Shown piece after piece: positions 3,021 through 62,990 of a stretch of DNA of 64,000 nucleotides. The stretch's first letter is position 1. The number at the start of each line of letters is the position of its first letter. The notes beneath the pieces are model-generated. The model had not been told where the DNA came from and searched no databases. It saw only the letters and a program-made list of their open reading frames with translations. A program made the position numbers and the translations under genes. The DNA lies in assembly GCF_018977255.1 (NCBI RefSeq), contig NW_024704742.1, forward strand, positions 76,262,001 through 76,326,000, given 5' to 3'. The DNA comes from Callorhinchus milii. Lineage: Eukaryota.

Positions 3021-3128
3021 GAATTCAAACATTTGGGAAAAACGTAGTTGTGGTTGGAAGGTCAAAAAATGTAGGAATGCCAATTGCAATCCTTTTGCAC
3101 ACTGATGGAAGACACGAAAGACCCGGAG
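3021..3128 (+). CDS. MTHFD2L: MTHFD2L internal coding exon (equivalent to human exon 5)
   Basis: ctag|GA...GGAG|gtaaga, 108 bp, phase 1-1. Encodes (G)IQTFGKNVVVVGRSKNVGMPIAILLHTDGRHERPG, the nucleotide-binding region of MTHFD2-family enzymes; GIQTFGKN is MTHFD2L-like. Confidence 0.95.
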
Positions 3129-14390: not shown

Positions 14391-17300
14391 CCACGGTTAT
14401 TAGTAATATTATTATTACTATTATTAGTTGTAGTAGTATTATCAGAAGTGATTAGTTCTTCCATTGGGGTGTTTGGAGAATCAGAGGATAGGTTATGGAA
14501 CACTAAAGTTTAGATGTGAGTTAAAAAATGCCATTAATCTGGAGTTGGTTGATGTGTCTGCTTCACAAGGGAATGGACACCGTATAACAACAACAAGGAA
14601 GTAACCTGAAAAAATATAGAGTAACTTCCTTCCCCTCCCCTATCAAAACACTCTTATTGCATATTTTTCAGTTAAAGAGGACTATTAGTATTCTTGAGTG
14701 CACCATTGACCCCAGCAGAATGACATGCTATGCAATTTTGAACGCTGTCTTCTCTGTAGTCCCTCTTTCTTGACTGATTCCACTTAAAGGCTTCAGTTCT
14801 TTTCCAGTAAGTGATATTCTGTTTGTAAGATTTCTTGACTAACTCACCATTATTTTGAAGTTGCACATTGTTGGCTGCTCTGTGTTGTTTGTGGGAAATT
14901 CCATAATGAACAGTTATCAAAAAGATCACTGTCGTTGTTTAGATCAGTGCGAAATTAAACCCTCCAAATCTCACTTTTGTAAAATTATCTCAGCTTACTG
15001 CCAACTCACAGGGGTTGAAAAAACCTTGTTGAAAAAACAACCAGAGCTAATGACATCTTTACACTGAATAAACTGCCTCAGAATGTAAAGTGTCTCTCCT
15101 GTAGGAAACTTCACGTATGTCGTGTTGACCCACAAAAACTCAGTCCTGGTCTGATATTGTCTCCAAGCCGATGCATCACATATTTGCATGATCTAACTAG
15201 GGTTCCCTACTAGAGGTACACTTTACATTGTGATGCCATCTGGTTAGCGTTAACACAGTAATTTTCCCAACGAGCATTGTTTCAAAATTCGTGGACTTGT
15301 GAAGCCATACAATTGCAGGAAACATTGGTATTTAATGCAGGAAGTTCAATTTTGAATCATTACACATATCTACCAATAGCACCAAAGCCTTCAATGCAAA
15401 TACTTTTTATTTAATAATGCTTTAACCATCCAATAAATATATGTGCACTGGATTAAAAGATACAATGCCAGTAGTTTGGGATAAGATACCAGATGTGTTG
15501 GCAAATAGCTTGCTGTAGGGTGTAGGCCATCAATTTGAGAGAAACAAAACTGTCACAGCTGTTAGTCACAGGTGAAAGCAATTTTTCACATTATATCAAG
15601 GATGCAGTGAGATGCAAGTCTGCTTCAGATGGTAGCATTCTAGCCTCTGAGTGAGAAGACCACTTTGAACTCTGTTTTGACTGACGCTCTAATACAGTGC
15701 AGGGGGAGTGCTGCATTATTTGAGTTGTCCTTCAGATGAGATGTTCACCCAGGTTCCATCTACCAGTTCAAGTGGGCAATTAAGATCATTTGAAAAGAAA
15801 AGAGAGTTTCTCCCAGTGTCTTGTCCAACAATCCTCCAAATAAAATTGGTCATTCACTTCATTGTGGGACATTGCTGTGCACAAATTGACTATCATGTTT
15901 GCCTACAAAATACACAGACACTTTACAATAAATCATTTAAGATGTCTTCCTCGCATGCAAGATGCAGTATCAAATGCAGGAATTATTATACATGGTCAGT
16001 ATCACTACTTCACTGAAAGAAAGAAAAGCAGAGTTCCACTTTGAACCAAGGTTTTGGTGAGATCAGGTTTTGGTCAGATAAGATAGCTTCACAACAGTTT
16101 CAAATGAGGAAGATTAAGAGATCTTGGCTCATTTGCATGGGAAGAAAGCCCGCTTCTGTGTGCAAGGGACTCAAACATTTATATGCTGTTTGTTTAAAAT
16201 GGACAAACTACTCCTTTCAGGCGGTGGGAGATCCATTACATACCTGATAGCAGGTCTGCAACCTATGCCAATGACAAATCTTCCCAACTTAACAGACAAA
16301 TTAACATCTCCTGTGGCATGGAAAGAGTCAAGGGAGAACTGAGGCAATAGCAACATTATTGTTGTGAAAGTAATGGTATTAATCATAACCTCCATAGGAA
16401 TTTCCCTTTGGCTTTCATGTGTAATCTAAGTTAATGTAATCCACAAAAGTGTTTCTTTGGAATAATGACTGTGCTGTTCAAGTTCCTCCTCCAACCTTTG
16501 TGGGTTAATGGTTTATTTGAGTAGAGCAGGTATTACAATGAAACCTGAGGGAAACTAGATTTATTATAAGAAGGAACTGATCTGGTTCAACTTTGATTCA
16601 TTTGATGTCCTTGGGCTGTCATCCCGACGTGAAATGCGCTACATAAATACAATTTGTTGTTGTTGTTGTTGTCCCCCCTCACTTTCCGTGTCTCAGGTGA
16701 CTAATTTGGTGAAGTAACTGATATATGAGCATGATTCTCAGTGCAGCCACAACTATTTATTTTATTCATATTTATTAATATTTGATTAATATTTTACTAT
16801 ATTTTGCCCACAAAATACACAGTCACTTTACTTTACAATATATTCTGTGAAGCGCTTTGAGATGATTCATTCTTCCTATTCAGCTCCAGTTAACCCTGCA
16901 AGCCAAAGCCAGAATGATGGGGTGGTCCTAGCTAGGCAAAGCAGAGGGAAACTTAGCAGACAGCGATATTAATAGCAAGCTATGCGGTTTTAGCTGGTTA
17001 AACTTCAGCAGTACTCCAATGCACACTCTGAAATCCGCAAGCCTTAGCTCTTTCCAACCTGTGTCGAATATTCTTTAAAATTATGTAAGCAGGATGTGTG
17101 TCTCTGGAGAGAGAATGCAAATTCCATTCCAAACATGGAATTTCCATGTGTAGGTGAGATGCATAGAACTGTCAGTTTGGTTTGGATACTCTCAAGCATG
17201 GTGATGGGTTTAGCCACGTGTTCAGATACCCAGCAGATCTAAAAAAAATACACTGATGAGAGGGAAACAGTTGACTTAGAAGTGTGACACATGCATTGCG

Positions 17301-30160: not shown

Positions 30161-31157
30161 GTGATGTATGCGGATGACACCCAACTCTACCTTTCCTCCT
30201 CTACCCTCAACTCTACCACCACCGATGTCCTGACAGCCTGCCTGTCCGACATCGAGTCCTGGACGAGAGACAACTTTCTTCAGCTCAATGTGCGCAAAAC
30301 TGAGGTCCTCCTGATTGGCTCACGTCAGCGCCTCCGCACCTCAGGCGCTGACACCATCAGCATCCAAGGCTGCACTCTCCACCTCTCAAAGCCACTCAGG
30401 AACCTCGGGGTTCTGTTCGACCCTGAGCTGTCCTTTCTCCCTCACATCCGCACCACAACTGGCACCGCCTTCCATCACCTCCGGAATATCGCCAGATGAT
30501 GGCACTACCTCACCCCTCACGCTGCTGAAACTCTGGTCCACGACTTTATCACCTCAAGGCTGGACTATGGGAACTCTCTCCTCGTCGGCCTTCCCGCCAC
30601 CTCCCTCCACAAGCTGCAGGTCATTCAGAACTCTGCAGCTCGTGTACTGTCCCGCACCAGGCTTCGCGACCACATCACTCCCACCCTCGCTCGCCTCCAC
30701 TGGCTCTCCATCCCCCAGAGGATCGAATTCAAGATCCTCATCCTCACCTACAAGGCCATTCACGGCCTTGCTCCCTCCTACCTCTCCAACCTACTATCCC
30801 CCTACCTACCTGCCCGTACCCTCCGTTCCTCTGGCTCCAGTCTGCTCCACATCCCCCGCCCCAACCGCCCTACCATTGATGGCCGGGCCTTCAGCCTCTC
30901 AGCCCCTAGGCTCTGGAACTCCATCCCCCAGTGCCTTCGCCGCCTCCTCCCTTTCCTCCTTCAAGGCTGGCCTCAAAACCTTTATCTTCAACCGTGCCTT
31001 CAGCTCCCCTCTCGACTCTCTACCCCCTCCTCCCTCCCTTTCCTCCCCTCACCCTGACCATTTCCCCCCTGCTCGGGTCCCGACCCAACTGTTCAGCGCC
31101 TTGGGATGTCCTCCCGACGTGAAAGGCGCTCTATAAATGAAATCTTGTTGTTGTTGT
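30161..31157 (+). mobile_element. 5'-truncated L2 LINE, young subfamily
   Basis: YADDTQLY through to an intact tail, with one in-frame stop at about 30497. Closely similar to the copy at 52531-53570. Confidence 0.93.
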
Positions 31158-32986
31158 ATTGTGGTAGAACACAAAAATCTGCTCAGTTGTTTCAATGAGA
31201 GAAAAGCCTATTCAAGAAGGATTACTTAGATCGTAAGTTCACCTACAAATACACAATATACACTACATTTTACAGTAAGTCTGCATTTGATATAGTGCCT
31301 TATCGTGTTGAGATGTCTCAAACGTGATAAGGCAATATATCAAATGCAAGGATTATTATTGTATTATCATTAAATGCTGATGGAGGACAAAAGATGAGGG
31401 TGGATAACTTGCTGCAGCTGTTCAATGTAATGCCTCATGACAGTTAGTCAGTTGACGTCCATACTATTGTAAATCTATCTGTACAGGTGTGGACTGCAGG
31501 TGGCATTACCGTGAAGCAATCCCACTGTCGACAGGAGTTGATGTCAGCTTTGTCCCTCCTTCCACCAGAAACTAGATTCTTCATTTTTTAGACAATGATT
31601 ATGATTTCACCACTTTAGATTTTGACATCAGTGTCAAGGAATATAAAAGAATCAGAAACACAACTGGGTTCTGTTTCTAATTTTCCGCATGGTCTCTCAC
31701 AGGTATCTGATTACCCCTTATCTCTGTATCTCTCTTTGTGAAACTTTCCCTATTGCAAAACATGATGAAACACATGAGTACTTTGAGTTCATGTCTTGAG
31801 CTGACTAATTATTTTTATAAACTCACACTTTTTTTGTGAGTTAGAAGTCAACTCGTATTAGCTTTGAGAGGAAAGGCATTGTCCAGTGCAGAGTTGGACC
31901 ATATAGACTGGAAGCTCACAGGTTTGAATGCCAGTCGGTGCTGAGTTAGTTGATGTTGGTGACTCAAGCAACTGAAGTGCTAACAATTGATCTCAGCAAC
32001 CTGAATTAGGGTATCAGCCAGGCTTGTATCTCTTGACCGTTGTCCATATAGCCCTTTTTGGAAAGATACTCCTTTTTGCAAAGTGTCCTTGTGTGCACAT
32101 TGGGTTAAAAACCTCACCTGAAATGCTCCCTGAGCTTGCCAAAAGTATAGTTTGCTTGAGATAGTGAATGTTGAATAATGGATTAATTTGTACTTTGTGT
32201 ATTTTTGAAAAGGTATCTGGGTGCCTCCAATACCCCCTGAAAAAACAATCTCTTGAGCATGGCTTTGGTCAGCATCCCTAAACTTTCCTTTCCTACTTGC
32301 TCGATGATCCCCATCATTTCTGAAAAGCATTTTGAGACATTCCTCCTTCTATATAAGTGTAAGTTGGAGCTCTTCAGTGCATGCCTCCCTTGTGATACAA
32401 TCCAGAATTGCTGTTATCCCGTAGGTGGTGCTTTCCTCTTTTCTCTTTGTAGGAACCTAAGAATTTACGGGGCTGAAAAAGTGTTAGTGTTAATATATGA
32501 GATTTCCATATAGGAAACACACCAATAGTAATAATAATAACACTAAAGTGTATGTGGAAAGAGCAGGGGAATGGGGTTTGTCTAACAACAACAACAACTT
32601 GCACTTATATAGAGCCCTCCACGCAGGGTAGCATCTCAGAGTGCTTAACAGTGGGGGAGTAGGTCTCTAGTGGGAGATCTGACACCAGCACAGACATCAT
32701 GTTTGGTTGGCATCCTTCTTTGCTGTAAACTTTCCATAGTTTCTTTGACTATGACCACTGAGTGTATTTGTACGTTGCTCAATTGACCGTATTTTAACTT
32801 TCTATTAATCTTTTTTTACCTACAGCTCAGGCAACCCAGTTTGACTTTCCCTTCATTCATAGTCTTTGAGGTCAATTTCACTTCCCCTCCACAAGTGTAA
32901 AAGTACAGAATGAATGAATGGAGCAGCTCGCCAGAGATCATTGCACTGAGCTTCTGTAGTGACATTGAATTATTGATTTGTTCCAG

Positions 32987-41318: not shown

Positions 41319-41999
41319 AGAGCCTGCACCTGGATGGAAATGGAAAAAATCCCAATTTCAGAGTGCATCTTAAGTTCTTATATGAAAAGTTTTTTTGTTA
41401 ACTATATTTTGTTTATATTGGTTGCAATGTCTTATAAGTAAAATGCTTCCTTTTTCATTGCAGTGAAGAATCTATGTTATGGTGGTTTGGAAGAGTATGT
41501 TTACACATATCCCAGCTTGATTTACCAGACTGTTACACTTTTATGCATGTAAAGGTCCAGGATTGCAAACAGTGCTGCACCCCTTCAGTAGACCACACAA
41601 ATAGAGGTTATCCATTGAAAATGCTTTCATCTTTTATATTCAATACATTCAGTAAAATGATTTCATAAAAAAAATGATGGATAGGTGTTTCATCAAGGTT
41701 GCTAAATGGCACTCTGAAAACACAAATGACCTATACCAAACTATGATGCATACATTCCTTTAACAATTTCAACTCCAGCAAGATTGAGGTTCCTGCTCTG
41801 GTATGGTTGCTGACCTCTGATGATGTGCACTTAATAACTGGTGTCACAATTCCTCACACAAGTTCCTGGTCTCAGTGCTCAGTAAGTTTCAAGATGAAGC
41901 ACTTCCTTATATGGAACCAAGAAAGCTTTATCTAGCTCCCAAGGCATTCTCACCCATATCACCCACAAAAAATATTCAGCCTCTCTACAGTGTATCTTG

Positions 42000-43022
42000 T
42001 ATATCCTCTTTTCTACCATAAACCAACTCCTCGGTCCACCCTCCCATGCCTCTGCCACCTTCTCCTCCAACACTAAATGCGAGAACATGATGAATTTTCT
42101 CAAGTCCAAAGTCGAGGGGCTCCGCTCTGCTGCCTCAAGCCCCCCTACTGGCACCCCGTCCCCACTTCCCGCTCCCCTTCCAGCCCCCCCCATCCCTCTC
42201 TCCACATTTTTGACCCTGTCTCCCCCTCTTCGCTCACCTTCATCATTTTCCCACCATCTGCTAGCTTGACCCCGTCGCTACCCCTGTTCTCACCTCCCAG
42301 CTTCACCTCCTTGCCCCCCAACTAACAGACCCCGTTAACCTCTCCCATCCACTGGCACCGTACCCATCCCCCTAAAGACAGCCGTCATCACCCCACCCTC
42401 AAAATCCTTCCTTTGACCCATCTCTGCTCTCCAAGTATCACCCCATTTCAAACCTTCCTTTTATATCAAAGGTCATGGAACGAGTCTTCGCTTCCCAGCT
42501 TTCCTTTTTCCTCTCCCGCGTTCCCTCCATGAAACCCTCCAATCTGGGTTTTGTGCTGCTCACAGCACAGACAACCCTGGTCAAAGTGACAAATAAAATT
42601 CTGTCCACCAGGGCTCTCCTCGTGTTTCTCAACCTCTCGGAAGCTTTCAATACTGTTGACCGCTCTATTCGTCTCCACAGGCTCTCCTCTCACCTCCACC
42701 TCAATGGTTCGTTTTTTGCCTGGTTCCAATCCTACCTTTCCCACTTCATTCTTACCTTCAAGTCCCTCCACGGTCTTGCTCCCCCCACCTCTCTGACCTC
42801 GTAACCCCATATCAGCCTGCCCGCTCCCTCCGCTCGGCGGACACCGGCCTGCTTCAGGTCTCCTGCACTTCCCACCCCACCATTGTTGGTTGGGCATCCA
42901 GCATCTCTGTCCCCACACTCTGCAACTCTATCCCACAATCCCTCCAGCTCACCCCCTCTCTTGCCTTCTTCAAGTTCCGTCTGAGAACTTCCTCTTCAAC
43001 CTTGCCTTCGGCCACCCTCCCA
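42000..43022 (+). mobile_element. Internally deleted L2 fragment
   Basis: LFSTINQLL, ERVFASQL, LVKVTN and AFNTVD, then WFQSYLS fused directly to ILTFKSLHGLAP. Confidence 0.88.
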
Positions 43023-43811
43023 CGTTATTGGTGACTTATTCTCTCAAATGAGAGAATTCTAAACTACACAATATAATATCTGGCAAGTCGAACCTTGATA
43101 CCTCACTGCAATCAGGATTAGCCAACAATATAAAATGAAAGCAAGTGCCATTTTTTCAGTAAACCCCAAGTCCTTCTGAAAAGCCATACAAAACAATTGT
43201 TTGTAATAATAAGTATTCAGCATTATTGGAAGAAATGTTCTGCTTTAGCTAATTCTACAGCCCACCTTTACCATGCTTGAATAAACAAATGAGTTGTGTT
43301 TTGTTATTTGAGTCTGCAATTGCATTCTAGACGATAGGAAAAACGAGAATGTTTTTAGTTGTGCTCTGACCATCATCACACAAGTTGATGATAATGAATG
43401 GTTAAAAAATTACATTGCAAATGCAAACATATTGCAGCGATAGAGCTTTTTTCTCAATGTAATACTATATCACCATTTTACCAAAAAGCATTGCTATTTG
43501 ACTGAACAATGGTGAAGAAAACCTCTATTTCAACTTTATTTTTTACGATTTTAAAATTAACTTTTAAACAAATATGTTGGTTATTTAACTTGCGCTTGTG
43601 GTTAGAATAACCAAAAAGGAATCATGATTATTCAACTCAATAAAAAAGTTTTTGAATGGTATGTGTATTGTTCTGACTCTGCAGAGAAATGTAAATTGAT
43701 TATTAGGATAAAGGAGTTGGCAAGAGACAATAAGCATTAGGGGTTGAAATTATCCCGGATTGTAATGTTACCAATTTTGCCAGCTGTAGTGTATGCCACC
43801 AATATAGGAGG

Positions 43812-44215
43812 CAGCTTGGCTCAGTTAGTAGCCCTGTCGCCTCCGAGTCAGAAAGTTGTGGATTCAAGCTCTACATTGAACTTTGAACTCACAGTCTCCG
43901 CTGACACTCCCACCATGATGCTGGCAGATCGCTGCATTGTCAGAGGTGCTATCCTTCAGATGAATGAGCCACCTTACATCTGCCTATTAGGGTAGATGTT
44001 TAAAGATTCCAGGTCACTGCTCAAAAAGAGAAGAGTTTTATCCAGTGACCCGACTAACAATCCCCCAGATAAAATTTGTCATTCACTTCTTGGCTGTTTG
44101 TTGGACATTGCTGTGTGGAAATTGGCAGTCACGTTAATCTACAAATACACAGTGAATTCACTCGGTGAAGCAATTTGGACGATACGATAAGGCGCCATAT
44201 CAAATGCAAGGATTA
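43812..44215 (+). mobile_element. Older SacSINE1-like Deu-domain SINE (family B)
   Basis: GGCTCAGTTAGTAGC...GAGTCAGAA head, GCTGACACTCC and GTCAGAGGTGC...CAGATGA, then the Deu core and tail. Related copies lie at about 4270-4500(-), 15620-15990(+), 35385-35780(+), 48155-48475(+), 52195-52440(+) and 58065-58420(-). Confidence 0.75.
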
Positions 44216-44264
44216 TTTATACTTTTTATTTATTTTGTATTCTTAACTTTCTCCTGTTCTTCTA

Positions 44265-44860
44265 TTCCACCCCCCTAAAAACAGCCGTCATCACCCCCAT
44301 CTTGAAAAAACCTTCCCTGGACCCATCCCTCCTCTCGAGCTACCGCCCCATCTCTAACCTCCCATTCCTCTTCAAGGTTCTGGAACGAGTCGTTGCGTCC
44401 CAGCTCCACTCCTTTCTTGCCATTCCCTCTTTTAACCCCTCCAATCCGGCTTCTGCGCTGCCCACAGCACGGAAACAGCCCTGGTCAAAGTCACCAATGA
44501 CATTCTGAACATCTGTGATCAGGGCTCCCTCTGCCTCTTTGTCCTCCTCGAGCTCTCTGCTGCCTTTGACACTGTCGACCACTCCATCCTCATACACTGC
44601 CTCTACTCAATCTTCGCGGACCTGCCCTTGTCTGGTTCAATTCCTATCTCTCTACGTTGTGGCCACCCCCCTTCCCCTCCCCTCCCTTCTCCCCCTGACC
44701 CCAGCTTGGGTCTGAAATGTTGTACACTGTCCAGCGCCTTGGGACGTCCTCCCAACATGAAAGGCGCTATACAAATGTAATCTTGTTGTTGTTGTCCAGC
44801 ACCTTGGGACATCCTCCCGACATGAAAGGCATGAAATGTAATTTTGTTGATGTTGTTGCT
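44265..44860 (+). mobile_element. Internally deleted L2 with two tandem 3' tails
   Basis: [22 protein letters not shown], followed by two consecutive copies of CAGCGCCTTGGGAC...GAAAGGC...(GTT)n at about 44728-44860. Confidence 0.85.
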
Positions 44861-45283
44861 TGGGCATGGGTAGTTAGATGTTGTGTCAGAGAGCCAATGA
44901 AGAAGAAGAACAAAAAAATTATATTTGTAAAGTGCCTTTCACATTGGGCGTATGTCCCAAGGCGCTAAAGGAATAGATGTCAGTCTTTAAGCCTCACGGA
45001 GGATGTCTCAATCCTTTTCAGGTGTGCTCTGGGTCGCTTCCCTGTGTGGAGGGCGCTATATAAATGCAAATTGTTGTTGTTCTTGTGTTGATGATAAACT
45101 CAGCAATCTTTCAAACTAATAGTGGGTGGAGAAGAAGTCATGTCCAACTAATCCTCTGAGTGAGGCTATCAATTTACCTTTAGGATAAGACATAGATGTT
45201 TCACAGTTACCAAACATCTGTTACTTATCTGGGCATTGAAGAACACATGGATTTGATATACTGGGGGAATTAATACTACGAAG

Positions 45284-45602
45284 AATAACCCTTGCATTTG
45301 CTATAGCCCTTTATTACGCCGTTGAGATGTTTCAAAGCACTTCACTGGAAAGTGAAATGACTGCATATTTTCTAGGCGAAATCTGCACAACAGTGTCCCA
45401 CAAAGTGTTGTGGAATGAATGACCAAATTATTGTTTATTATTTATTTATGTATTTATTTTGAAGGGATTATTATCTCCTGAAATCAACTTAATGCTGGTA
45501 AACAGGTGTGCGGAGTAAGGAAACTTCCCTAAGGTTTCGTTCTGCCTGGGAACTGAGTTCACTTGCAAGGTGAATCTTCTAACCAATACACTACAGGACT
45601 CC
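45284..45602 (-). mobile_element. Family A SINE
   Basis: Tail, Deu-like core, GGAGTAAGGAAAC and head motifs. Confidence 0.8.
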
Positions 45603-47254
45603 ACTAAATTTAAAAATCAGTTGCGAAATGGCCTGACAGCTCGGTGCGCTCAGCCACAGGGTGGTGCCCTTGAGGCTAATAGCGCCTTTGCGGCCTTCTC
45701 TGAGGCGGTTTCTGTGAGGGGGTGGTTGTGAATAATAAGCATTTAAGGTGATGCATCAGTGAAAGTTATGGACCATTCTTTTCTTTAAAAAAACGTGTTG
45801 AGTGACATGGGAATAGGTCAGGGCATATAAGAAAGAAACCAAAGAAATCAAGTTTCCAAGAAAGAGAAAATCTGAAATGGTAGACTGCCATCTGAGATTC
45901 ATTTTAGAATTAAGATTACTAAAGCTGATCAGCCCTTCAATGAACAGGAGTGTTCAACCAGCAGGCTGCTATTGGAACAATCCCCGATTTGCTCCAATTA
46001 AACATTCTCCATTCATATAACTGTGCCATTTGGTTATTATGTTCAATATTGATATGAATCAAATATTTAACCAGTGGATAATACATCTAATCAATAATAA
46101 TCCTAGCATTTGATGTAACACCTTATAAGGGCTGAAAGCTGCGCTTGTTGGATGTCAAATAACTAACTTGTGACTATCCTCTTTAGGGGAAGGTAAGATG
46201 GCTCCAAGGTGACATGTTTGACAACGTAATGTCGGAATTGAGTCAATCCTCTGTGGTGGTTTTAGTTGTCCAGTTCCTGAGCCAGGGCACTGCTGATGAA
46301 AGATCAGTGAACCTGGCTCATTGGCAGGACTTGGGAGCAGGGATACTTAATATATGGAGACCTGTGAAGACAACCCAGCCTCTAGACTCTGCAACAAGCC
46401 AGGTTGAAAAGGCAGTATGTTGTGGTGCCTGGGCCCCACATTTTAAAATGTACTGATTGATGAGAACATAAATTGAGGACGATCACCAAGTGTTGTAATG
46501 AATTCAGAAAGCTTTGTCACAAATGGCACTTGAAGCTTTTTTTAATAATAGCTTTTAACAGAAATTGGATAAACAACTGAGAAAAAAAAGATTGTTTTTG
46601 ATCAGCTGGGTGTCTGACACGTACAGAAACCCATCAACATGCTTGAGAGTATTGAAACCAGACTTAGCAATCCACATATGTATACCACCTTCACATGGAA
46701 ATGTCCCGGTGTCTGGAGTAGAATGTGCACTCTCTCCTTGGAGGGACTTGGATTGGCAAGAGCCAAGGTTTGGGGAGCCCCAAATTGCGTTATTGCTGGG
46801 GTTTAACCAGCTAAAACCGCAAAGCTTGCCATTGAGAGCACTGTCTGGAACTAGAACCACTCTGCTCCTCAGTGCTTTGGTTTGCAGGGTTAAGAGGAGC
46901 TCAGTGAGAAGAAACACTGCTCCAAATGACTGATTTGCCCAAATCCTTGGTTAAAGGGTATGCAAAATAGCAGGGAAGAGGATTAGAGTAGATACCTCCA
47001 GTAAGGAAGCCAGCAGCAGCACAGCCACAGGACTCCTGTTCTTTAAATAATTTATGACTCTCAGCATTGGCTCCAACTGAAGCTGTGAATAATTTTTTAG
47101 AGCCAATCTGACAAGAAAGAGCTTGCATTATGATGGAACCTTGTTTCTTCAAAATATCGCAAAGCTCTTCGGAAGTAATTGCTGTCAAGTGTAGAGATTT
47201 TGGAGACAACTCGTTACTGGTTTTATGGTATCATTTTCTTTGCCTCTCAGTTAC

Positions 47255-47512
47255 AAATGTGGTGGGCGAAACTCAGTAGCCAATTGCCCACAACAGTGTT
47301 CCACAAACATTTGTGGATGGAGTGATCATTTTTTTTTTGAGGGATTATTACCCCCAGAAAGTGATCCGCCAATCGACTAACAACTGGGTTCCTACTTGCT
47401 GCTGGGTAAAGAGAGGCATGTGGAATAAGGAAACTTGCCTAAGGTTACGCCCTGCCGGGGCTTCTCATTTGTGAGGCAAGCGTGCTATCCAGCACACACT
47501 ACAGGACTCCAC
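47255..47512 (-). mobile_element. Family A SINE lacking its 3' tail
   Basis: Core and head motifs. Confidence 0.8.
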
Positions 47513-50500
47513 TCTATACACCATTATAATCCTGGACAGGCTAAGAGAGGCTTGTCACAGCCACCTGGCTGTCTGAGGGACAAAGCAGAGAAAGGCAATT
47601 CTAAAAAGGTGCGTAATGGGAGTGATGTGGAGTACATTGACCACATTGTTCATGTATCACTCGAGTGAGATCACTCGCTTTCAGTTTGTGATTTGGAAAA
47701 ACGATGAGTAACATAGAACGATGGGACAGAATGATGGGGGAAAAAATCTACTTATTAGGTGGAATCCCACCTTGTCTCGAGTTGCCCTGTGTGATGGGCG
47801 TTATATAAATGCAACTTGTTGTTGTTGAGTTTTCCCCTATTTTAGCAGAGGCCAATCTGGCTTGAGCAACTGGAACACATGATTCAGTGATCTACAGCCA
47901 TCAAAACACTTGCTCCCAAACCAGCAAATATGTTTCTTGATACCAGCTATTATTCATACTGTAATGAAACAGTTACCTTGATGACTCAATGAGTTTAACC
48001 AGTAAATAGATGAACCATACAGATTGTCTTACCAGCCTGGCAGTGTGGGAAATGCTGAGACCACTTCTTGGATCCATGGACAAAGCTCCCTTAATTAAAG
48101 TTAAAAAGGGTATTTGTTTTTCCACTTTGATGCTTTTTGTAGTAATTGTGTGTCAGGCTGGCTCAAATGGTAGCACCCTTGCCTCTATGTGAAATAGTTC
48201 TGGTCTTAAGACCCATGTTGGGACTTTGAATTCACAGTGTAGGCTAACACTCTAATACAGTGTTCTTTGTTCTTGACTACTGTCCTTCAGATACCAAGGT
48301 CAAAAGATGGATGTTAAAGATCTCCCTGATAAAATTGGTCATTCATTTCATGGCAGTTTGTGGAATATTGCAAATTGGGTGCTATGTTTGACTACAAAAA
48401 AATACACATTTATTGCACTTTACAGTTAATCCTATGAAACACTAATACCAAATGTAAGGATTATTATTTTATTATTATGGTTAAGACCAGGGCTCTGCTT
48501 GACTTTGTGATGGGAGGACAGTAGGGCAGGTATTGTGAAAGGATGAGACCAAATGGGCTGAATGGCCTTCTTCATCCAAACCTCTCTTGTGATCTTGTGG
48601 CACAACGTTGCTTCCCTCGGGTTTCCTGGTAAAGGTGGCACAAATGAATTATGTGCGATTCATTTTCTCAGCAGCAAGACTTCTACAGTAAATATTGTTT
48701 CACCCCCAAAATATACCGTCAATTCACTTTACAGTACATTCTGTGAAGCATTTTGAGATGTCTCGAAGACGTGATAAGGCACTATATCAAAAACAAGGAT
48801 TATTATTACTGGCATAAATTCAGCATTCAAATTACTGAATAGCCCAGGAATGGAGATCTGGTTACAGGTCTTGGTATGGCTTGAAGGAACAGTTTCACAA
48901 GGACCTTTAATTAACCATAATTGTTAGGGATTGTGACACAGTCACCTCACTGGACTGAAAACTTATTTTGACAGCCGAGAAAGGCTTTCCACTTAATAGG
49001 TAATGGTTGGCGCACCAGACATGATATTAAGCTAGAATGTTGACATCCATTACTGGGGAATGCCTTCATTTGCTGCCTCAGTGCACAAGCTTAAGGATAA
49101 AGAAGGCTGTGGTTATATATTAAGACACAGTGGACTCATTTGTTGTATTTTTCTATGGAATTCCTTGATAAACAATCCCATTAAAATTCCTGTGAGAATT
49201 TTATTCTGGAATTAAATCTCGTCAGGAGTTAGGAGGGAGGAGTCCCCATTTACACAATTTGGATCATTAAGATATCCTGTTGGAAAATCCTGCAAATTGA
49301 TAATAATTCTTGCATTTTATATAGCGCTTTATCATGTCATTGAGACGTCTCAAAGAACTCTGCAGGATATACTGTAAATCGGAGTAACTGAATGTATTTT
49401 GTGGGTGAAATTAGATTCCGATATGCACAATTTAGGGAGTTGCACCAGGTCTTAACCAAAACATCCAGGTGACTATACAGAGGTTGGCATATTGTTGGAG
49501 TATTTCAGTTTTCATTGACCGTCAATAATAAATGACTGTAGATTAATAATTCTGTCAGACTCTAAAGCATTATGAGAACACACAAACCATCCAGAGCTGA
49601 AATAATCAAAGGGGCAAGTTTCCAAAGAAGGCATTCAGAATTCAAATTCAGACATTCATGTGTATCAGTTCTGTAGTGTCTAGAGTTGCAGTTTGCAGAT
49701 CAGGAGCATGCTAGTTTGAATCCTTGGGTTCCTAAGAATCCTGTACCCTACCAACTCACCACTCCCTCAAATCAGCAGACACTGGGTTGCTTCATTTCCC
49801 CTGCCCTGCCTGGTCCACAATGGCCTTTCTGGAATTCCATCCCTTCACCTTGCCTCTTCCCTTGCCTTATTCAAGGTTGGTCTCAAGAGTCTTCTTTTCG
49901 GCTGTACTTTCGGTCATCTTCCCTCTCTCCACATCCCCTTTAGCCTCCACTCCTCCCAAATCCAATCCCCAGCTTGGGGGCAAATCCTTGACTATTGAGT
50001 AGCTTCAGAAGTCCTCCTGATGTGTGTTTGTAGGTGTGGGGTTAGAAAAAGAAATCAGATTGAGCAGATGAACAGAGGCCTTGGTAAATTTTAGACCATT
50101 AAAAGCATGGAATGTGAAACACAATTTGGTCTGTTGAACCCACTCCTTCCATAGATTATGCAAAACCTAGTGCGTCCTGGTCTCCACCCTACTTATTAAA
50201 TGATTTTAGGATACCCAGAAGATGCGGAAAAGGGGAGAAGATATAAGGTTATTAGAATTTCCTTATTTAGCAAAGGGAGATGTTTAAGTTAGCAAAAAAT
50301 GATATGAGAGGTCAATCCCTCAGCCTCACCCATGTTCTTTATCTATCTTTGAATTCCATCTTAAGACCTACCTGTTCAATGGTCACCTACCCCTCCCCTT
50401 TTTGCCATGCTTGGTGTCCGACCCTTCAACTGTATAGAGTACAGAGACTCTATCCTGTGGAAGGGGTACTACATAAATGCAAGTTGTTGTTATCACTAGG

Positions 50501-51729
50501 CTCTCCCAGAGAATCAAAATCTAAATGGTGTAGGCTGTCAGAGAAAGGGGAACATGGGGAGGATCACTGCAGTCATAGCCATAGCCTCAAAAATTTTGCT
50601 TCTTATCCACATATATCTTCAAATTAGCAGGTTGCTCATCTCATTGTTCTTCATATGGCATTGCTGTTGTATTTTTCCAATAAAGCAATATTCACTTTAA
50701 CCTCTAATTCATTTTATTTCATCAAGTGCTTTGAGACAGTTTGCATGAAGGACACTGTATAAATGCAGTATAAAACTAGTATAAAAGTTACTATTATTAT
50801 AGGATGTCAAAAGTACCCAACGTTATCCTTTGGTCATGACAAGTGGCAGAGCTCACTACCATTGCAGATTGATTCATTACTTCAGATCATCTTCCTTTAT
50901 GTCGAATTATAGAACATTGATAGCAGGAAAGGAGACCATTTGGCCCATTGTGTCTATGCTGTACTTGCCCCCCCAATGAGATCAAAGAAAATTTACTGCA
51001 CAGAAGCTGTCTTTTCAAGGCTAAAGCATCCAAGCTTTTTTAACCATTCTTTATAGCTCATCTATCTAATGCTCCATCAAAGCCTCTTTGCTTTCCTCTA
51101 CACAGCCTTTAGAGCCTGGGCAGCCAGAGAAAACCCCAAAGACAATCTGTTATTTGGGGAAACGTAAGGACACTATTAAGATAGTTAATAGCATGGTGTA
51201 ATGGGCCAAGCCTACTCACACGTGATGTGTTTCAATCTGCAAATTAAGAAATACAAGTTTGAAAGGCCGCCCAGAGATGCTGGTATAGGTGTGGCTAGAT
51301 TCAATTCTTTAAAGGTTAAGCAAAACATGTCTAACTGTGTGTCCGTTGTCTTAGCCACATACACACAAGATATGTGAATGATATTTTTGGAAACCGAATC
51401 AGTTTAATGGTATTTAAATGTAATAATTATAACATTCCTTGCATTTGATTTAGAGCCTTTCACATTGAAATATCTCAAACACCTTTATAGATGAATGTGG
51501 CATTAATGTGGTGTATAATACAAAAGGATAGATTTTTTTGTGATTCTATGAAATAGTGAAGAAAGGAATAGAAGGATATGGGAGGGACTAACGAGTGTTG
51601 GGAGATTCGTACGGAGGATAAACACCAGCATGGAGTAGTTGGGCCGACTGGCCTGTTTCTGTTCTGTATAATCTATGTAGTTGCCTCTGATGGGAAGATC
51701 TGTTTTTTATCAACAACAAAAAAAAAGGA

Positions 51730-52175
51730 GTGGGACACTGCTGTGCGCAATTGGCTGCCATGTTTCGTCCACAAAATATAGAGCCAATTCACTTTATAGT
51801 ATATTCGGTGAAACGCTTTGAGATTGTGCTCAGTAAAACACTTTGCAAATTTACTTTCATCCAAGTCTGCGGAATGTGTTTGACTTCTCCCTTCTGTCGA
51901 TACTTGTTGGTTACGTGTATTTATACACCTGTTGAAGTGATGCATCTGGAATACCACAATCAACGTCATTTCACTTGGTGCACCAACAGAAACCTCTGAG
52001 TATTTAATAACCTGTTTAAAATTGACAAATTGATTGCCTAGAATTTGTTATCACCACTTATTGTACAGCACGCGTTAAAGTAGAATTATGGAAAAGTATC
52101 TTAAGCACATTTTGCACACCTCGAAGATGTGATAAGGCGCTATATCAAATGCAAGGATTATTATATTATTATTAT
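51730..52175 (+). mobile_element. 3' half of a family A SINE, interrupted by a 293-bp insert copied from the EPGN 5' region
   Basis: The SINE runs to ...CGCTTTGAGAT (51824) and resumes at CTCGAAGATGTGATAAGGCGCTATATC (about 52120). Confidence 0.88.
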
Positions 52176-52530
52176 AACAAAACGTTTATATCCAGCCTTC
52201 ACGTGAGATATAAACTGAGGTCCCACCTGCCGGTGAGGTGATGTTAAACATCCCATGGCATTATTTGAGAAGCATAAGAGAAGAGAGTTTCTCATGATGT
52301 CCTAGCCAACATTTCCCAGATTCATTTGCTGTTAATTTCTTGGGACCTTGCTGAGTACAAATTGGCTGCTATGTTTCCATACAAATTCCTAGTCACTAAA
52401 CTTGACAACAATTTCCTGTGAAGCAATTTGAGATGTTTTGCTGTCACAGATACTACATCAGATGACTTTATGCATGTTCATGCTACAACCCAGTGGATTT
52501 AATGGGATGAAAATGGGGTCACTAATGACT

Positions 52531-54385
52531 ACAACAACAACAAGATTCCATTTATAAAGCGCCTTTCACGTCAGGAGGACGTCCCAAGGCGCTGCACAGT
52601 TGGGTCATGACCCGAGCAGGGGGGAAATGGTCAGGGTGAGGGGAAGGGAGGGAGCAGGAGGGGGGAAATGGTCAGGGTGAGGGGAGGGAAGGGAGGGAGC
52701 GAGGAGGGGGAAGAGAGTCGAGAGGGGAGCTGAAGGCACGGTCAAAGAGAAAGGTTTTGAGACCGGCCTTGAAGGAGGAAAGGGAGGAAGCGGCGAAGGC
52801 ACTGGGGGATGGAGTTCCAGAGCCTGGGGCTGAGAGGCTGAAGGCCCGACCACCGATGGTAGGGCGGTTGGGGCGGGGGACGTGGAGCAGACCGGAGCCA
52901 GAGGAACGGAGGGTACGGGCAGGTAGGTAGGGGGATAGTAGGTTGGAGAGGTAGGAGGGAGCAAGGCCGTGAATGGCCTTGTAGGTGAGGATGAGGATCT
53001 TGAAATCAATCCTCTGGGGGATGGGGAGCCAGTGGAGGCGAGCGAGGGTGGGAGTGATGTGGTCCCGAAGCCTGGTGCGGGACAGTACACGAGCTGCAGA
53101 GTTCTGAATGACCTGCAGCTTGTGGAGGGAGGTGGCGGGAAGGCCGGCGAGGAGAGAGTTCCCATAGTCCAGCCTTGAGGTGACAAAGGCGTGAACCAGG
53201 GTTTCAGCAGCGTGAGGGGTGAGGTAGTGCCGTAGTCTGGCGATGTTCCGGAGGTGATGGAAGGCGGTGCCAGTTGTGGTGCGGATGTGAGGGAGAAAGG
53301 ACAGCTCAGGGTCGAACAAAACGCCGAGGTTCCTGACTGGCTTTGAGAGGTGGAGAGTGCAGCCTTGGATGCTGATGGTGTCAGCGCCTGAGGTGCGGAG
53401 GCGCTGACGTGAGCCAATCAGGAGGGCCTCGGTTTTTCGCACGTTGAGCTGAAGAAAGTTGTCTCTCGTCCAGGACTCGATGTCGGACAGGCAGCTGTCA
53501 GGACATCGGTGGTCGTGGAGTTGAGAGTAGAGGAGGAAAGGTAGAGTTGGGTGTCATCCGCATACATGTGGAAGTTAACTCCATGTCTGCGGATGATGTC
53601 ACCACAGGGGGAGCATATAGAGGGTGAAGAGGAGGGGACCGAGGACAGAGCCCTGAGGGACACCACATGAGACAGTGCGGGGGGTGGAGGAGAAGCCATT
53701 CGTCGAGACGAAGTGAAGACGGTGAGAAAGGTACGACCTAAACCATTCAAGGACAGTGCCTTGAAGGTTGAGGTGGGAGGACAAGCGGTGGAGTAGGATA
53801 GCGTGGTCGACCGTATCGAATGCTGCCGATAGGTCGAGGAGGACGAGGAGACAGAGGGAGCCCTGGTCACAGATGGTCAGGATATCATTGGTGACCTTGA
53901 CCAGGGCAGTTTCTGTGCTATGGGCAGCACGGAAACCTGACTGAAGGGGTTCGAAAAGAGAATGGGTGGAAAGGAAAGAGCGCAGTTGGGAGGCGACAAC
54001 TCTTTCCAAGACCTTGGAGAGAAAGGGGAGGTTGGAGATGGGCCGGTAGCTTGATAGCTGCGACGCATCAAGGGAGGGTTTTTTCAGGGTGGGCGTGATG
54101 ATGGCAGTTTTTAATGGAATGGGGACAGAGCCAGAGGAGAGGGACAGGTTGATGATGTCAGTGATATGTGGGGCAAGAAAGTGGAGCTGGGAGATAAGGA
54201 GTGGAGTGGGGATGGGGTCAAGGGAGCAGGTGGTTGGTTTTAGGGATAGGATGAGTTCAGTGACAGAGGGTGGGGAAACGGGTACGAAGGTGTGTAGGGG
54301 AGGATGGGTAGGAGTCGGAGTGTGGGAGGGAAGGGGTGGGTGGTGGGTGGAAGTTGGAGGGGAAGTGACCGCGGAGCGGATTCCC
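52531..54385 (-). mobile_element. 5'-truncated L2 LINE covering most of the RT domain
   Basis: [50 protein letters not shown] and YADD motifs with few frameshifts. A roughly 40-bp G-rich tandem duplication lies in the 3' UTR (about 52620-52705). Confidence 0.95.
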
Positions 54386-55265
54386 TTGATTAGATTGATA
54401 GGGTTGAAGTAGATCATGGAGGTAGGGTAAATTATGTCTTGACTTTGGTTATCTCATGGTTGTTTTACCACTTATCAGGGCAAAGTGAGAATTATGAGAA
54501 TCTTAATTACATGACAAGAACAGTTAATCTCTATAATAAAATACTATTTAGCATAACAAAGATTTTCTCTTAATAATGTGTTTTGGGCCTCAGTATGTTT
54601 CTGCTTTTGCCTCACTGTTATTCTACTGTTAAATGGGTTTGATGTTTCAAATAAAAAAATTATAAAAGAATGGAAGCCCAAGGTTATTTTCTTGATTTGA
54701 TTCTTTGGTGATTTATCTTTCAAAACAAATATGAAAAATGTCCTGAAAGCAAAATCCCAATCATTTCTGTTTGTGAATGGCACAATTTCAATCCTCAGTT
54801 TTACTGTGCTGAAGTGCACAATTCAAACAGAGCTAACACCAAGCAGTATTGAGACACTGGTCATCAGCTCAGCATAGAACAACTGGACAGCAATTTAACA
54901 TTATTAAACTTAACAGGAATGAATGCCAGTTAGCATTGCTTAAAATCATGCTTGCAACTGCTTCCTTGGCTGAGATCCTGCAATGTTCTACTGTGATTGG
55001 ATTGACGCTGCATGGGCGTTTACCCACTAGGCCTTTGGAAAGGGTTAATTTGTATAGCAACGTGTTGTAACAATGTTTGCTCATCCGTAAGTGAAATTAG
55101 ATTTTGATTGAGGAGTGCCCTTTTAATATAATTTTTTTGATGCAGTATGACAGACAGCAGGAAATGCAATGTCAGTTATGAAAGAAATCCAAAAGTGAAG
55201 GTTGAATTAACATTACAGTCAAGTGAAGTATCGCCTCCTGGGCTTCTGGATCTCAGCCACATGGA

Positions 55266-55466
55266 ACTCAGAGATTTCTATTGGTGCACCAAGTGAAATG
55301 ACGTTGATTGTGGTATTCCAGATGCAACACTTCAACAGGTGTATAAATACACGTGAACAACAAGTATCGACAGAAGGGAGAAGTCAAGCACATTCCGCAG
55401 ACTTGGGTGAAAGTAAATTTGCAAAGTTTTTTACCGAGCACATTCAACAAGCACCCGTTCCTGAAT
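55266..55466 (+). promoter_or_regulatory. EPGN: Putative EPGN core promoter and 5' UTR
   Basis: Reverse CCAAT (ATTGG, 55280-55284), TGACG half-CRE (55299-55303), TATAAAT (55342-55348) and CACGTG E-box (55350-55355). No ATG lies between the TATA box and the start codon at 55467. Confidence 0.65.
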
Positions 55467-55506
55467 ATGGAATATTCAGCTGGAAAATATATCGTAATAA
55501 TAAATG
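55467..55506 (+). CDS. EPGN: Epigen coding exon 1 (start of signal peptide)
   Basis: Strong Kozak context AATATGG; encodes MEYSAGKYIVIIN, then G|gtaagg (phase 1). Joins in frame to the next exon, paralleling human MALGVPISVYLLFN-AMTA. Confidence 0.8.
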
Positions 55507-56875
55507 GTAAGGCTCTCTATTTTACAATACATTAAATCTGTTTGCCTACCTTTGGCACTTAGATTGTTTCTATAACCTGTTTAAAATTGACAAATTGATT
55601 GCCTAGGACTTGTTAACACCACTTATTGTACAGCACGAGTTAAAGTAGAATTATGGAAAACTATCTTAAGCACATTTTGCACGTTCAGCCTTGTCTTGAG
55701 GCTCAGAGTAAGCAGCAGTGTTTCTGGAAGTAATCAGCAGTATCATATCTTGGATGCTGTCAAAATGGTTCATTTCAGTGATTTACCATGGAATGTTTAC
55801 AGCACAGAAGGAGATCATGCTTTTCATTGTGTGCAGTTTTCAAAAAGCACAAGCTTATTATTATAACTTTATAACAATATCAACTTTAGAATTTGAGAAC
55901 TCCTGTAAATTAACCTGGTCCAACATAATTTCCAACACAAGACCTGAAACTAAGTACAATTATTTTAAGCAGAACTGCAATTAATTAATACTTGAAATAA
56001 TGCACTTTGCACCCCTAAGAGCTGGGACCAGTTGTATCACGAGAGCTGTCAAGGCATGAACTTTCTCAAATACATGTAAACCAAGCAAAAAGAACCTGCT
56101 CTTTTTATCAAGAAGATTGCTCATCTCTCATCGTACACTTCCTGGGGGTCATAACACCATTGCGAGTGTTGCCTGCAGTAATTGTTTTTGATTGTTAGAA
56201 CTATTGAAGAATGGAACAGTATTTGTCTGCCTGGTGTGGTGTTGTGCTCAACCACCTTGTTTCAGTTTTGTTTTCTTGCCACGTTATGCAGAATTTATCA
56301 GTCAGACTAAGATATTGTTATCGCCAGGATTAGACCTTGACAAGCAAACAATTGGATCTATCGCGTTCTTTACAATTTTTTCCCTACCTGTGCCTGTGGC
56401 ACTATCTTCAATGCAATTCATTGCTTTGCAGACATTTGGTACAGTATAGCGCCGCCTCACATTGGGAGGATGTCCCAAAGTGCTTCTCAGGATATACTGT
56501 AAAGTGAAGTGTCTATGTTTTGTGGGCCAATATGTATTTCTGTAAAGTTCATTGTCTTTCCACAAGACTGTAATGGATTGACCTTCGCTACTGTGTGAAT
56601 GTAAAGCCAATAATATAGCACCATTTTAAAGAGAGAAAATGCTACCACAATGTAACACTGTTTGTTTAACTGAAATATGAACAGACAGTATAATTATACA
56701 GAGATGTGTTAACAAATTGCGTATTTGATGCTTTCAGCTATCGATTGATAACTGCGATAAGATAAGTCATTCATGAGATAATTAGAGAGGTGTGGATAAA
56801 CAAGCCCTTTGGCCCATTTGATCTCATCCTTTCAGAATGCCCAACTTATTATCTACCTATTGCAGCATCAAAAGG

Positions 56876-57070: not shown

Positions 57071-57335
57071 GTCAGAAGCTGTTTCCTGAATCAATCCGGT
57101 GTTCTAGTCCCAACCACCCTTTCTGGAATCCCATTCCACCTGTTAACTACCCTTTATGTAAAGAAATGCTTTGTGGTATCTATCCTGAAATTATCGGTTG
57201 GAGTTGAGTACCTGTGCCCCTAGTCCTGCTGTTTGGGAGCCTCAGTGCTGGTTTGCACCTAGTTAAGCACCAAATATGAAATACAACAGAGTTCTGCTAC
57301 AGAGTTGCCATTAAATGATCATTTCTCTTTTCTAG

Positions 57336-57461
57336 CTATCATCGCAATGACTAACGCTGGGAATATATTGAGCAAGACAGCTGCCCCCGGTTTATTGTCG
57401 GCTTCAGATGTGCTTCAGAATGAGTTGGAATCTGCAGCACAAAATAAACCAGCTCAGAAAG
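57336..57461 (+). CDS. EPGN: Epigen coding exon 2 (end of signal peptide and pro-region)
   Basis: tttctcttttctag|CT...AAAG|gtatgg, 126 bp, phase 1-1. Encodes (A)IIAMTNAGNILSKTAAPGLLSASDVLQNELESAAQNKPAQK. Confidence 0.8.
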
Positions 57462-61429: not shown

Positions 61430-61889
61430 AGTGCAGATCATCCAGAAGTTTGCAGCCTATATCCTCTTCCGGATCAGGCTTCATGCCCCTGTCAACCCCA
61501 TCCTAGGGCATCCACTGGTTCCTCAACACTCAGCAGATCAAATTCAAGATTTTTGACCTCATTTTGAAATTCTTCCATGGCCTTTTACTTACCTCTACAA
61601 CCTCCTGTGCAATACTGCCCTGGCCGTTTCCTCCACTTAGCCTGTTTCATTTCCACCTTATGATCCTCTCCACCATCGATGGGCGAGCCTTCAGCCACTC
61701 TGCTCCCGCTCGCTAGAACTCCATCTTGGAGTGTCTCCATTTCGCCCCATCTCTCTGTACCTTCAAAACCCACCTGTTTGACTGTGCTTTCAGCCACCTT
61801 TCCCTCCCAAAGCTCAGGTACCCAGCCAGCTGTGTGAAGCACTTTTGAGAGTGAAAAATGCTGTATAAGTGTAAATTGTTGTTGTTGTT
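61430..61889 (+). mobile_element. Degenerate L2 3' fragment ending about 35 nt before EPGN exon 3
   Basis: CACTGG...ATCAAATTCAAGAT (HW...IKFKI) and GGGCGAGCCTTCAGCC (GRAFS), then a (GTT)n tail. Confidence 0.75.
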
Positions 61890-61924
61890 AATGGTCATTC
61901 AACATTTTTTTGTTTGTTTCACAG

Positions 61925-62054
61925 AAGCCCAAGAACTTCCTGCAGTCCTATTAGTTCAAAAACCTTGTCATAAAGATGATAAAAGCTACTGTATGAACGG
62001 CATCTGCACCTACCAAGATGATCAGGATCAAAGTATGAAACACCGCATGTGTGT
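61925..62054 (+). CDS. EPGN: Epigen coding exon 3 (EGF domain, Cys1-Cys4)
   Basis: tttcacag|AA...TGTGT|gtaagt, phase 1-2. Encodes (E)AQELPAVLLVQKPCHKDDKSYCMNGICTYQDDQDQSMKHRMC(V). An intron between Cys4 and Cys5 is typical of ErbB ligands. Confidence 0.9.
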
Positions 62055-62732
62055 GTAAGTCTTGAAGATTTTAGATTATTATTAAACCCCTTCATAATCC
62101 TGAGACTCTTTACTGAACCACATCCAAAGTCAAAGTTGCGAAAGAAAGAGAGAAAGAAAGTTAGAGAGAAAGCTTGCTGGTTGGGGAATCGCTTTCTTAA
62201 CTTAGCGCTGACCAAATCTGAGGGGTTTATTTTGCGACATTTCTTAATATGTAATCCTGTTTGAATTTACTTGATCTGCAGGAACTCTGCCCTGGAAGTG
62301 GATTGCAGGGAAGCAGAAGTCAGCACAATGTTCTTTCGGATACTGGAAGGGCTCTCCATTAGTGGAACTCTGATTCTTAAAAAGGAACTTAAATAGGATT
62401 GGAAAAGTAAACCCAGAACAATAATTTAAAATATACCAAGATAGTAGGTCAAGAGGACATAGTTTTACAATTGCAAAGGGCAACTTCAAGATAGATACCA
62501 AGAAATGTTTCTTCAGATAGAGATAATTAACGACCGGAACAGGTTGCTAGGAAAGGTGGTTGAGGCCAGTGATGAGATTCGATAGGTTGAAAGACCTTTT
62601 TCATCTAAACTCATCTTGTCATCTTGAGAATCTGGTCGGGTCTTGATTTAGGCTTACAAAAGTAAGTCAAATTAATTATACAAACAGAACAAAGTTTAAA
62701 ATACACATGTGTGAAATCTTCCTTTGTTTCAG

Positions 62733-62885
62733 TTGTCATGCAGGATACACAGGAGACAGGTGCCAGCACATGACATTAACATCTCATACAACTGAAGATT
62801 CAGAAAGGTATATAGCCATTGTCATTGGATCAGGGTTCCTGCTCATCGCACTAGCTGGTGTTCTCTTCTATTTCATTCATTACAG
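62733..62885 (+). CDS. EPGN: Epigen coding exon 4 (EGF Cys5-Cys6, juxtamembrane stalk, transmembrane helix)
   Basis: tttcag|T...TACAG|gtaagc, phase 2-2. Encodes CHAGYTGDRCQHMTLTSHTTEDSERYIAIVIGSGFLLIALAGVLFYFIHY(R), compare human [37 protein letters not shown]. Confidence 0.92.
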
Positions 62886-62990
62886 GTAAGCACAACAACA
62901 ACAACTTGCACTTGCCCTCCATGCAGGGTAGCGTCTCAGAGCGCTTAAAACACAAGGCAGTCAGATTACAACTCCCTTTAAACATTATTA

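Follow-up and report, generated by a model that had tools for sequence, protein, structure and literature searches.

A locally templated, two-piece insertion from the EPGN promoter and first intron inside a SINE of Callorhinchus milii

The EPGN locus and the structure of the insert

We analysed a 64-kb stretch of DNA (the window) from Callorhinchus milii (elephant shark). FolD-like exons lie on its plus strand at 3023–41297, with a stop near 41320, a pattern that fits the name MTHFD2L given in a first-pass annotation of the same DNA; we take the gene to be MTHFD2L, choosing between paralogues by synteny. The name EPGN, assigned there to a second gene, is borne out by a 51-residue exon peptide that matches 'epigen [Callorhinchus milii]' at every residue (100%; 2 matches among 32 candidates). 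The best solved relative of the EGF exon is likewise epigen (E = 0.011), and the epigen protein maps to 55467–55506, 57335–57460, 61924–62055 and 62734–62886. From the spacing to the TATA box, the transcription start site (TSS) of EPGN was predicted at 55372. The available gene models differ at the N-terminus: the NCBI epigen model (P0001) starts at 55467, unlike the UniRef model (P0002), whose N-terminus is read from repeat-derived intron 2 sequence (61679–62052) and looks like a mis-prediction.

Upstream of EPGN, a 5'-truncated LINE with an RT-like frame and a SINE-like tail occupies the minus strand at 52530–54400 (the upper bound is approximate). It differs by 4.5% from another copy in the window, and we infer that it is of L2 type. 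Its RT-like frame is long but interrupted by a few stops and frameshifts, and the element has a strong G skew (+0.46), a 41-nt tandem duplication at 52618–52695 and a 91% match to the copy at 30164–31158. A search for its target-site duplication (TSD) gave no convincing one, the best being 5 nt long.

Next to this LINE, a SINE on the plus strand is interrupted by 293 nt of inserted sequence. The 5' part of the SINE (51730–51824), which is 5'-truncated, belongs to a tRNA-headed element with an L2-type tail and extends as far as the midpoint of the palindrome in that tail; the 3' part (52118–52175) comprises the remaining tail and ATT repeats. Longer copies of the same repeat begin with tRNA-like heads, and the tail resembles that of the neighbouring LINE. 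A 7-nt A-rich direct repeat at 51715–51721 and 52176–52182 may be the SINE's own TSD. L2-dependent SINEs are known from C. milii, where CmiSINE and SacSINE1-CM feature a tRNA head, an L2-homologous tail and a CORE or Deu body (PMC5499810). The host element appears to fit this group, and we give it no family name.

The insert consists of two copied pieces and a linker. Segment A (51825–52001) is the reverse complement of 55266–55442, with 9 mismatches in 177 positions (6 of them transitions) and no gaps. It is followed by five nucleotides, ATTTA (52002–52006), and then by segment B (52007–52117), an ungapped direct copy of 55572–55682 with 5 mismatches in 111 positions. The boundaries, the mismatch counts estimated by eye, the lack of indels and the 5-nt linker had all been proposed before, and they proved exact. 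In a self-BLAST, the two matches had E-values of 1e-75 (A) and 1e-44 (B). Two matches per segment had been expected genome-wide; within the window, each has a single partner, and among the seven two-copy matches listed these are the only ones with >90% identity over >30 nt. On this scale, the reading of the segments as a dispersed repeat is not supported, and a local template-switch or repair insertion is supported instead.

Relative to the predicted EPGN TSS, segment A corresponds to −106 to +70 and segment B to +200 to +310. The donor of A, on the plus strand, thus spans the EPGN promoter and 5' UTR, with ATTGG at −92, TGACG at −73, TATAAAT at −30 and CACGTG at −22, and the donor of B, on the same strand, lies in intron 1. 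Between the two donors, 129 nt (55443–55571) were skipped; they hold the end of the 5' UTR, coding exon 1 (55467–55506), its splice donor and the start of intron 1. The earlier observation that the EPGN ATG and splice donor fall in this skipped stretch was correct (ATG at 55467, donor AATG/GTAAGG). At each joint with the SINE, the source piece is attached by its downstream end: 55442 on the left, 55682 on the right. Within the insert we found no poly(A), no poly(A) signal, no TSD of at least 5 bp and no tail repeat, and an Rfam scan of the window returned only four tRNA-like SINE heads, none of them in the insert. Taken together, this is almost certainly a real, locally templated insertion.

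We aligned the SINE halves with 13 intact copies selected within the window: consensus position 0 is the last one in the left half, and the right half resumes at +1, with nothing duplicated or lost. The claim that the insert splits a SINE is thus upheld, and the split falls at the centre of the tail palindrome. As a break hotspot, this centre did not reach significance: of the copies in the window with an internal break, the host set aside, about 2 of 10 (counted by eye) are broken within 2 nt of it (P = 0.20). A third candidate (52436) was dropped, as it is a diverged intact copy. Other rearranged SINE copies were seen in the window. At 31282–31359, two SINE tails form a fold-back fusion centred on the same tail palindrome as the insertion site. 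A copy at 16824–16864 is cut off one base past the palindrome centre, with no matching tail downstream on the same strand before 21800. At 384–553, a SINE body is duplicated in inverted orientation (384–441 plus, 553–480 minus), the fold-back being centred upstream of the tail palindrome.

Segment A and its donor also constitute a 177-bp, 95% inverted repeat whose arms lie 3.26 kb apart. The arms of such a repeat could pair within a read-through transcript, or recombine and thereby flip the interval that holds the LINE.

Age and origin of the insert

The K2P divergence between copy and donor is 5.0% (raw 95% interval 2.7–8.0%), which excludes a duplicate created by assembly. The two segments are equally diverged (Fisher P = 1.0), as a single event predicts. 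We saw no sign of gene conversion between copy and donor (longest identical runs, P = 0.57 and 0.78) and no signal of CpG loss (1 of 6 donor CpGs changed). With a SINE clock of 1.0–1.1e-9 per site per year (PMC5499810), the divergence suggests an age of about 25 My (13–40); the rate of 2.2e-10 assumed in PMC4422223 suggests up to about 115 My. The directly measured shark rate, 7e-10 per generation (PMC10587355), points to a slower clock and hence to the older side of this range.

The host SINE probably predates the insert. It differs from a five-copy consensus at 15 of 139 sites, and at 6 of 111 outside CpG. Over all sites, it is more diverged than the insert (15/139 versus 14/288, P = 0.04), a comparison inflated by CpG; at non-CpG sites (6/111 versus 12/270 pairwise), the difference is not significant, with a Fisher P of 0.12 or 0.79 depending on donor constraint.

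How could two adjacent pieces of one gene have arrived in opposite orientation inside a SINE? The proposal that the insert arose by local templated break repair or template switching agrees with its lack of a TSD and poly(A) and with its content of both promoter and intron sequence. Among the mechanisms of this kind, the one we favour, tentatively, is a two-ended, DNA-templated break repair with end joining, in which the EPGN sense strand served as template. According to this model, a germline double-strand break would have occurred in the pre-existing SINE, 3.3–3.6 kb upstream of the EPGN start. The broken 3' ends would then both have paired, over at most a short microhomology, with the sense strand at the start of EPGN: the left one at +70, the right one at +310. 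From there, both ends would have been extended towards the promoter, by 177 nt and 111 nt respectively, the first passing the start site and reaching −106. Finally, the two new strands would have come free and been sealed by end joining, with the 5-nt linker formed where they met and no SINE sequence lost. Since then the insert would have been decaying, probably neutrally.

Support for this model comes from the joints. Since both host joints lie at downstream source ends, both new strands can be read off the plus (EPGN sense) strand. The only added bases stand at the internal joint, where the two copied strands would meet. A DNA template is consistent with segment A extending to −106 relative to the predicted TSS and with segment B being intronic. 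Against the model, opposite orientation of the two pieces is expected by chance in half of two-piece events, and the geometry is therefore only suggestive. After 5% decay, the original microhomologies at the host joints can only be bracketed, at 0–4 nt, according to the letters that one assumes for the ancestral SINE. The linker ATTTA may be non-templated or may have been templated from the donor TATA box, to which a 7-nt match is not significant (P = 0.078 on one strand, 0.155 on both). The distance from donor to insertion site was originally 3.3–3.6 kb, or about 1.5–1.7 kb if the LINE came later. Templates of micro-insertions reportedly lie 2–6 kb from human deletion breakpoints, a report that we do not use as evidence.

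Both putative priming sites lie in the transcribed part of EPGN and on the strand displaced in transcription, so a single-stranded template provided by an R-loop or transcription bubble is plausible. The R-loop step is speculative: typical R-loop sequence is G-skewed, and the EPGN donor region (35% GC, GC skew −0.01) is not typical. The closest experimental parallel would be the transcription-coupled templated insertions described by Min et al. (10.1101/2022.09.30.509517) at induced double-strand breaks in a human cell line. Those insertions are alike in size (median 120 bp), in having donors at promoters and on the transcribed sides of TSSs and in showing 0–3 nt of microhomology, and displaced-strand annealing followed by NHEJ was proposed for them, a model that the position of the two putative EPGN priming sites matches; multi-donor cases made up 8.7%. 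The parallel is inexact in that, unlike here, their donors cluster around other cut sites, the enrichment being close to breaks induced at the donor itself. Neither 'inverted' nor 'orientation' occurs in the main text of that report, and so the same-strand, two-ended geometry is a reading of our own.

Serial template switching at a stalled fork, of the FoSTeS/MMBIR type, is the first alternative to be weighed, and we regard it as possible but doubtful. Here, segment A would have been copied from the plus strand and segment B from the minus strand before synthesis returned to the SINE exit point. The end of B together with the next donor bases resembles the left arm of the SINE consensus (in the top 0.3% when scored against 2000 positions in the vicinity, ACGT being common to both at the joint), a likeness that would explain the exact, lossless return. 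It fades to the top 18% when the present host letters are used, and it was one of four comparisons made; homeology at the left joint ranks in the top 14–33%. Nor does serial switching predict that the sources should neighbour each other without overlap, or that bases should be added solely at the internal joint. FoSTeS/MMBIR has been invoked for templated insertions of several pieces whose joints are blunt or share 1–3 nt of microhomology (PMC5120786). Both these events and SD-MMEJ products (PMC2943611) resemble the insert in combining more than one templated piece, inversion, joints with little or no microhomology and possibly a templated linker. They differ in scale, the former being clinical CNVs and much larger, the latter a few nucleotides beside the break.

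The two-ended geometry would also be expected of an RNA template. A LINE reverse transcriptase, acting independently of its endonuclease at a break that already existed, could have twin-primed on one unspliced sense RNA that started upstream of −106, either as read-through from MTHFD2L or from an upstream start. Twin-primed, 5'-inverted L1 copies and antisense chimeras (PMC11702581, PMC13174262) share with the insert an inverted upstream piece and a direct downstream piece, both from the sense strand, and an end-joining scar. In addition, there is a LINE about as old as the insert at a distance of 400 nt. Nevertheless, we consider this origin rather unlikely. The RNA would have had to be an unspliced transcript spanning −106 to +310, thus including sequence upstream of the TATA box. 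In the L1 data, internal breakpoints lie within 1–10 bp and TSDs measure 12–18 bp, as opposed here to an internal gap of 129 nt and an insert with no TSD, no poly(A) and no retroelement sequence. There is no RNA-editing signature either, only 2 of the 14 differences being A-to-G in the sense direction, and a donor within 4 kb would fit DNA contact better than free RNA. The earlier suggestion that the insert is unlikely to come from mRNA holds for processed mRNA, against which the missing poly(A) and TSD and the content of intron and promoter sequence argue; it does not extend to an RNA template whose transcript began upstream of −106.

RNA patches have been proposed as the source of class 2 templated insertions, which lack a TSD and poly(A) (Onozawa and Aplan, PMC5110952). 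These class 2 insertions (TSI/TSIP) are alike in being copy-paste patches of 70–400 nt of germline origin with an intact donor, and in carrying non-templated bases at a joint. At our locus, too, the donor is intact beside the extra copy, and the 5-nt linker at the internal joint is a mark of end joining. In contrast, TSIPs are defined by a distant donor, and ours is only 3.3–3.6 kb away. Furthermore, TSIPs are by definition polymorphic, and the insert is old, with no empty allele among the rows shown for four individuals. It also consists of two pieces in opposite orientation, unlike a TSIP (PMC5110952). The insert thus behaves like a class 2 insertion with a nearby donor and shows the geometry of twin priming without the marks that define TPRT. 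We class it as a repair insertion of two pieces with a local template, a type of event already described (PMC5120786, PMC2943611).

Another reading, in which the insert arrived with the SINE in one retrotransposition event involving several template switches, draws on the similar ages of SINE and insert, which are indistinguishable at non-CpG sites. We judge it very improbable: synthesis would have had to come back to the SINE RNA at the exact exit base, with an antisense template for segment A in between, and the all-site comparison, CpG-inflated as it is, makes the SINE the more diverged of the two.

The locus offers a germline case, both clean and dated, of an insertion made from two pieces of local template. 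The geometry of such an insert tells which donor strand could have been single-stranded, and so bears on start regions as repair donors. Should same-strand geometry be common and sense-biased genome-wide, it would constitute a fossil test of the R-loop donor model, which one locus cannot show. No paper joining EPGN and Callorhinchus appeared among the 10 of 530 literature matches listed.

Contigs from other individuals

At least 7 of 24 sequencing runs listed contain the window or part of it, all under one species label. We compared four of them (X1–X4), which are four samples of one study and each hold 76–83% of the window words; three further runs, with shares of only 0.07–0.11, were left out. 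The first-pass annotation had expected reads to span the junctions of the insert. For the joint between SINE and segment A, a contig crosses in all four runs at a depth of 11.8–17.1 (6–13 for flanking contigs), with a SINE-side overlap of 30 letters in three runs and 40 in one, so that a single run reaches a 31-letter threshold. Contigs likewise run from segment A through the linker into segment B in 4/4 runs, and in three of the four a donor contig with the seven expected differences is present beside the copy contig. The joint between segment B and the SINE (52117/52118) is bridged in 0/4 runs among the records listed, although a gap in such contigs is no proof of absence. Copy-specific letters of segment B were also found in 0/4 runs among those records, 52037–52150 being without a copy-specific contig. 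The right joint is read from the window sequence alone.

Where segment B should continue, at 52042–52073, depth is 0 in X1, X3 and X4. In X2, one 699-nt contig crosses the linker, carries donor letters in segment B and then leaves the window. Its depth (7.9) is flank-like, so that the intron does not look duplicated, a weak argument. Copy and donor are identical over the first 35 nt of segment B, and the SINE tail adjoining the missing joint has a depth of about 1.5 million. Short-read assemblers drop short paths into very high-depth nodes. The likeliest explanation of the gap is graph cleaning beside the high-depth SINE tail, together with these 35 identical nucleotides. An assembly artefact, or a haplotype in which segment B does not return to the SINE, could account for the unbridged joint, the zero depth and the X2 contig, but is barely credible: copy and donor are told apart by 14 differences in 288 sites, separate donor and copy contigs coexist in three of the four runs, the missing part adjoins an extremely deep repeat, and the identical start of segment B allows a chimeric path.

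An empty allele would appear as a SINE without the insert. We saw none among the rows shown for the four individuals; rows joining 51823 to 52119 with CG between, at a depth of 30–70, are best read as other SINE copies. At 96% likeness, depth over 51880–52017 in the four contig sets was 12–40, compared with about 8–20 in the flanks, and one contig per run showed other letters. Elsewhere, the window differs from the four individuals by 6-nt insertions behind 50617 (50617–50619) in three of them, by C>T at 51075 in all four and by single-run changes at 50595 and 52271.

The copied promoter

In the inverted copy, the TATAAAT box, with a predicted start site at 51895 on the minus strand, is intact. 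Both this box and 16 nt around the predicted TSS are identical to the donor, and TGACG is kept. The donor ATTGG (reverse CCAAT) corresponds to GTTGG in the copy, and CACGTG to CACGTA. The first-pass annotation was thus right about which motifs agree and which differ; its further statement that the copy lost CCAAT and CACGTG goes beyond the comparison, since an outgroup is needed to tell the mutated side at each site. Motifs occupy 23 of the 177 nt and contain 2 of the 9 differences, against 1.2 expected (P = 0.33), a chance rate at low statistical power. TATA-like matches are frequent in the region, with 8 per strand in 41400–55300.

The suggestion that the copy forms a TATA cassette able to drive an antisense transcript towards MTHFD2L found no support in these motif differences or in the sequence downstream of it. 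On the minus strand, ATTAAA at 51408 and AATAAA at 50718 (about 0.5 and 1.2 kb away) precede the first strong 5' splice-site match at 49760. Up to the stop region of MTHFD2L, about 10.5 kb away, there are 10 AATAAA and 3 ATTAAA, 13 poly(A) hexamers in all. A transcript that meets poly(A) sites early, with no splice donor before them, is usually short and unstable. Since poly(A) hexamers come before any such splice site, an antisense transcript from the copy would be unlikely to reach MTHFD2L.

Judged from its sequence, the insert resembles a commonplace scar of DNA repair that has been decaying slowly, and nothing in it points to a function. A more elaborate reading is highly unlikely: that same-strand twin priming on the transcribing gene created a working second EPGN core promoter, retained for tens of My and firing away from EPGN or competing for enhancers, and that such copies at SINE-tail palindromes would be a recurrent route of local promoter duplication in an L2/SINE-rich genome. 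Were the copied TATA cassette active, it would represent instant promoter duplication by repair, which one locus cannot show.

One of the differences between copy and donor concerns a potential start codon. In the copy, an ATG at 51860 on the minus strand opens a 23-codon frame. The donor has GTG at the corresponding position (55407), in frame with the EPGN start and 20 codons upstream of it, and the difference is probably a plain transition.
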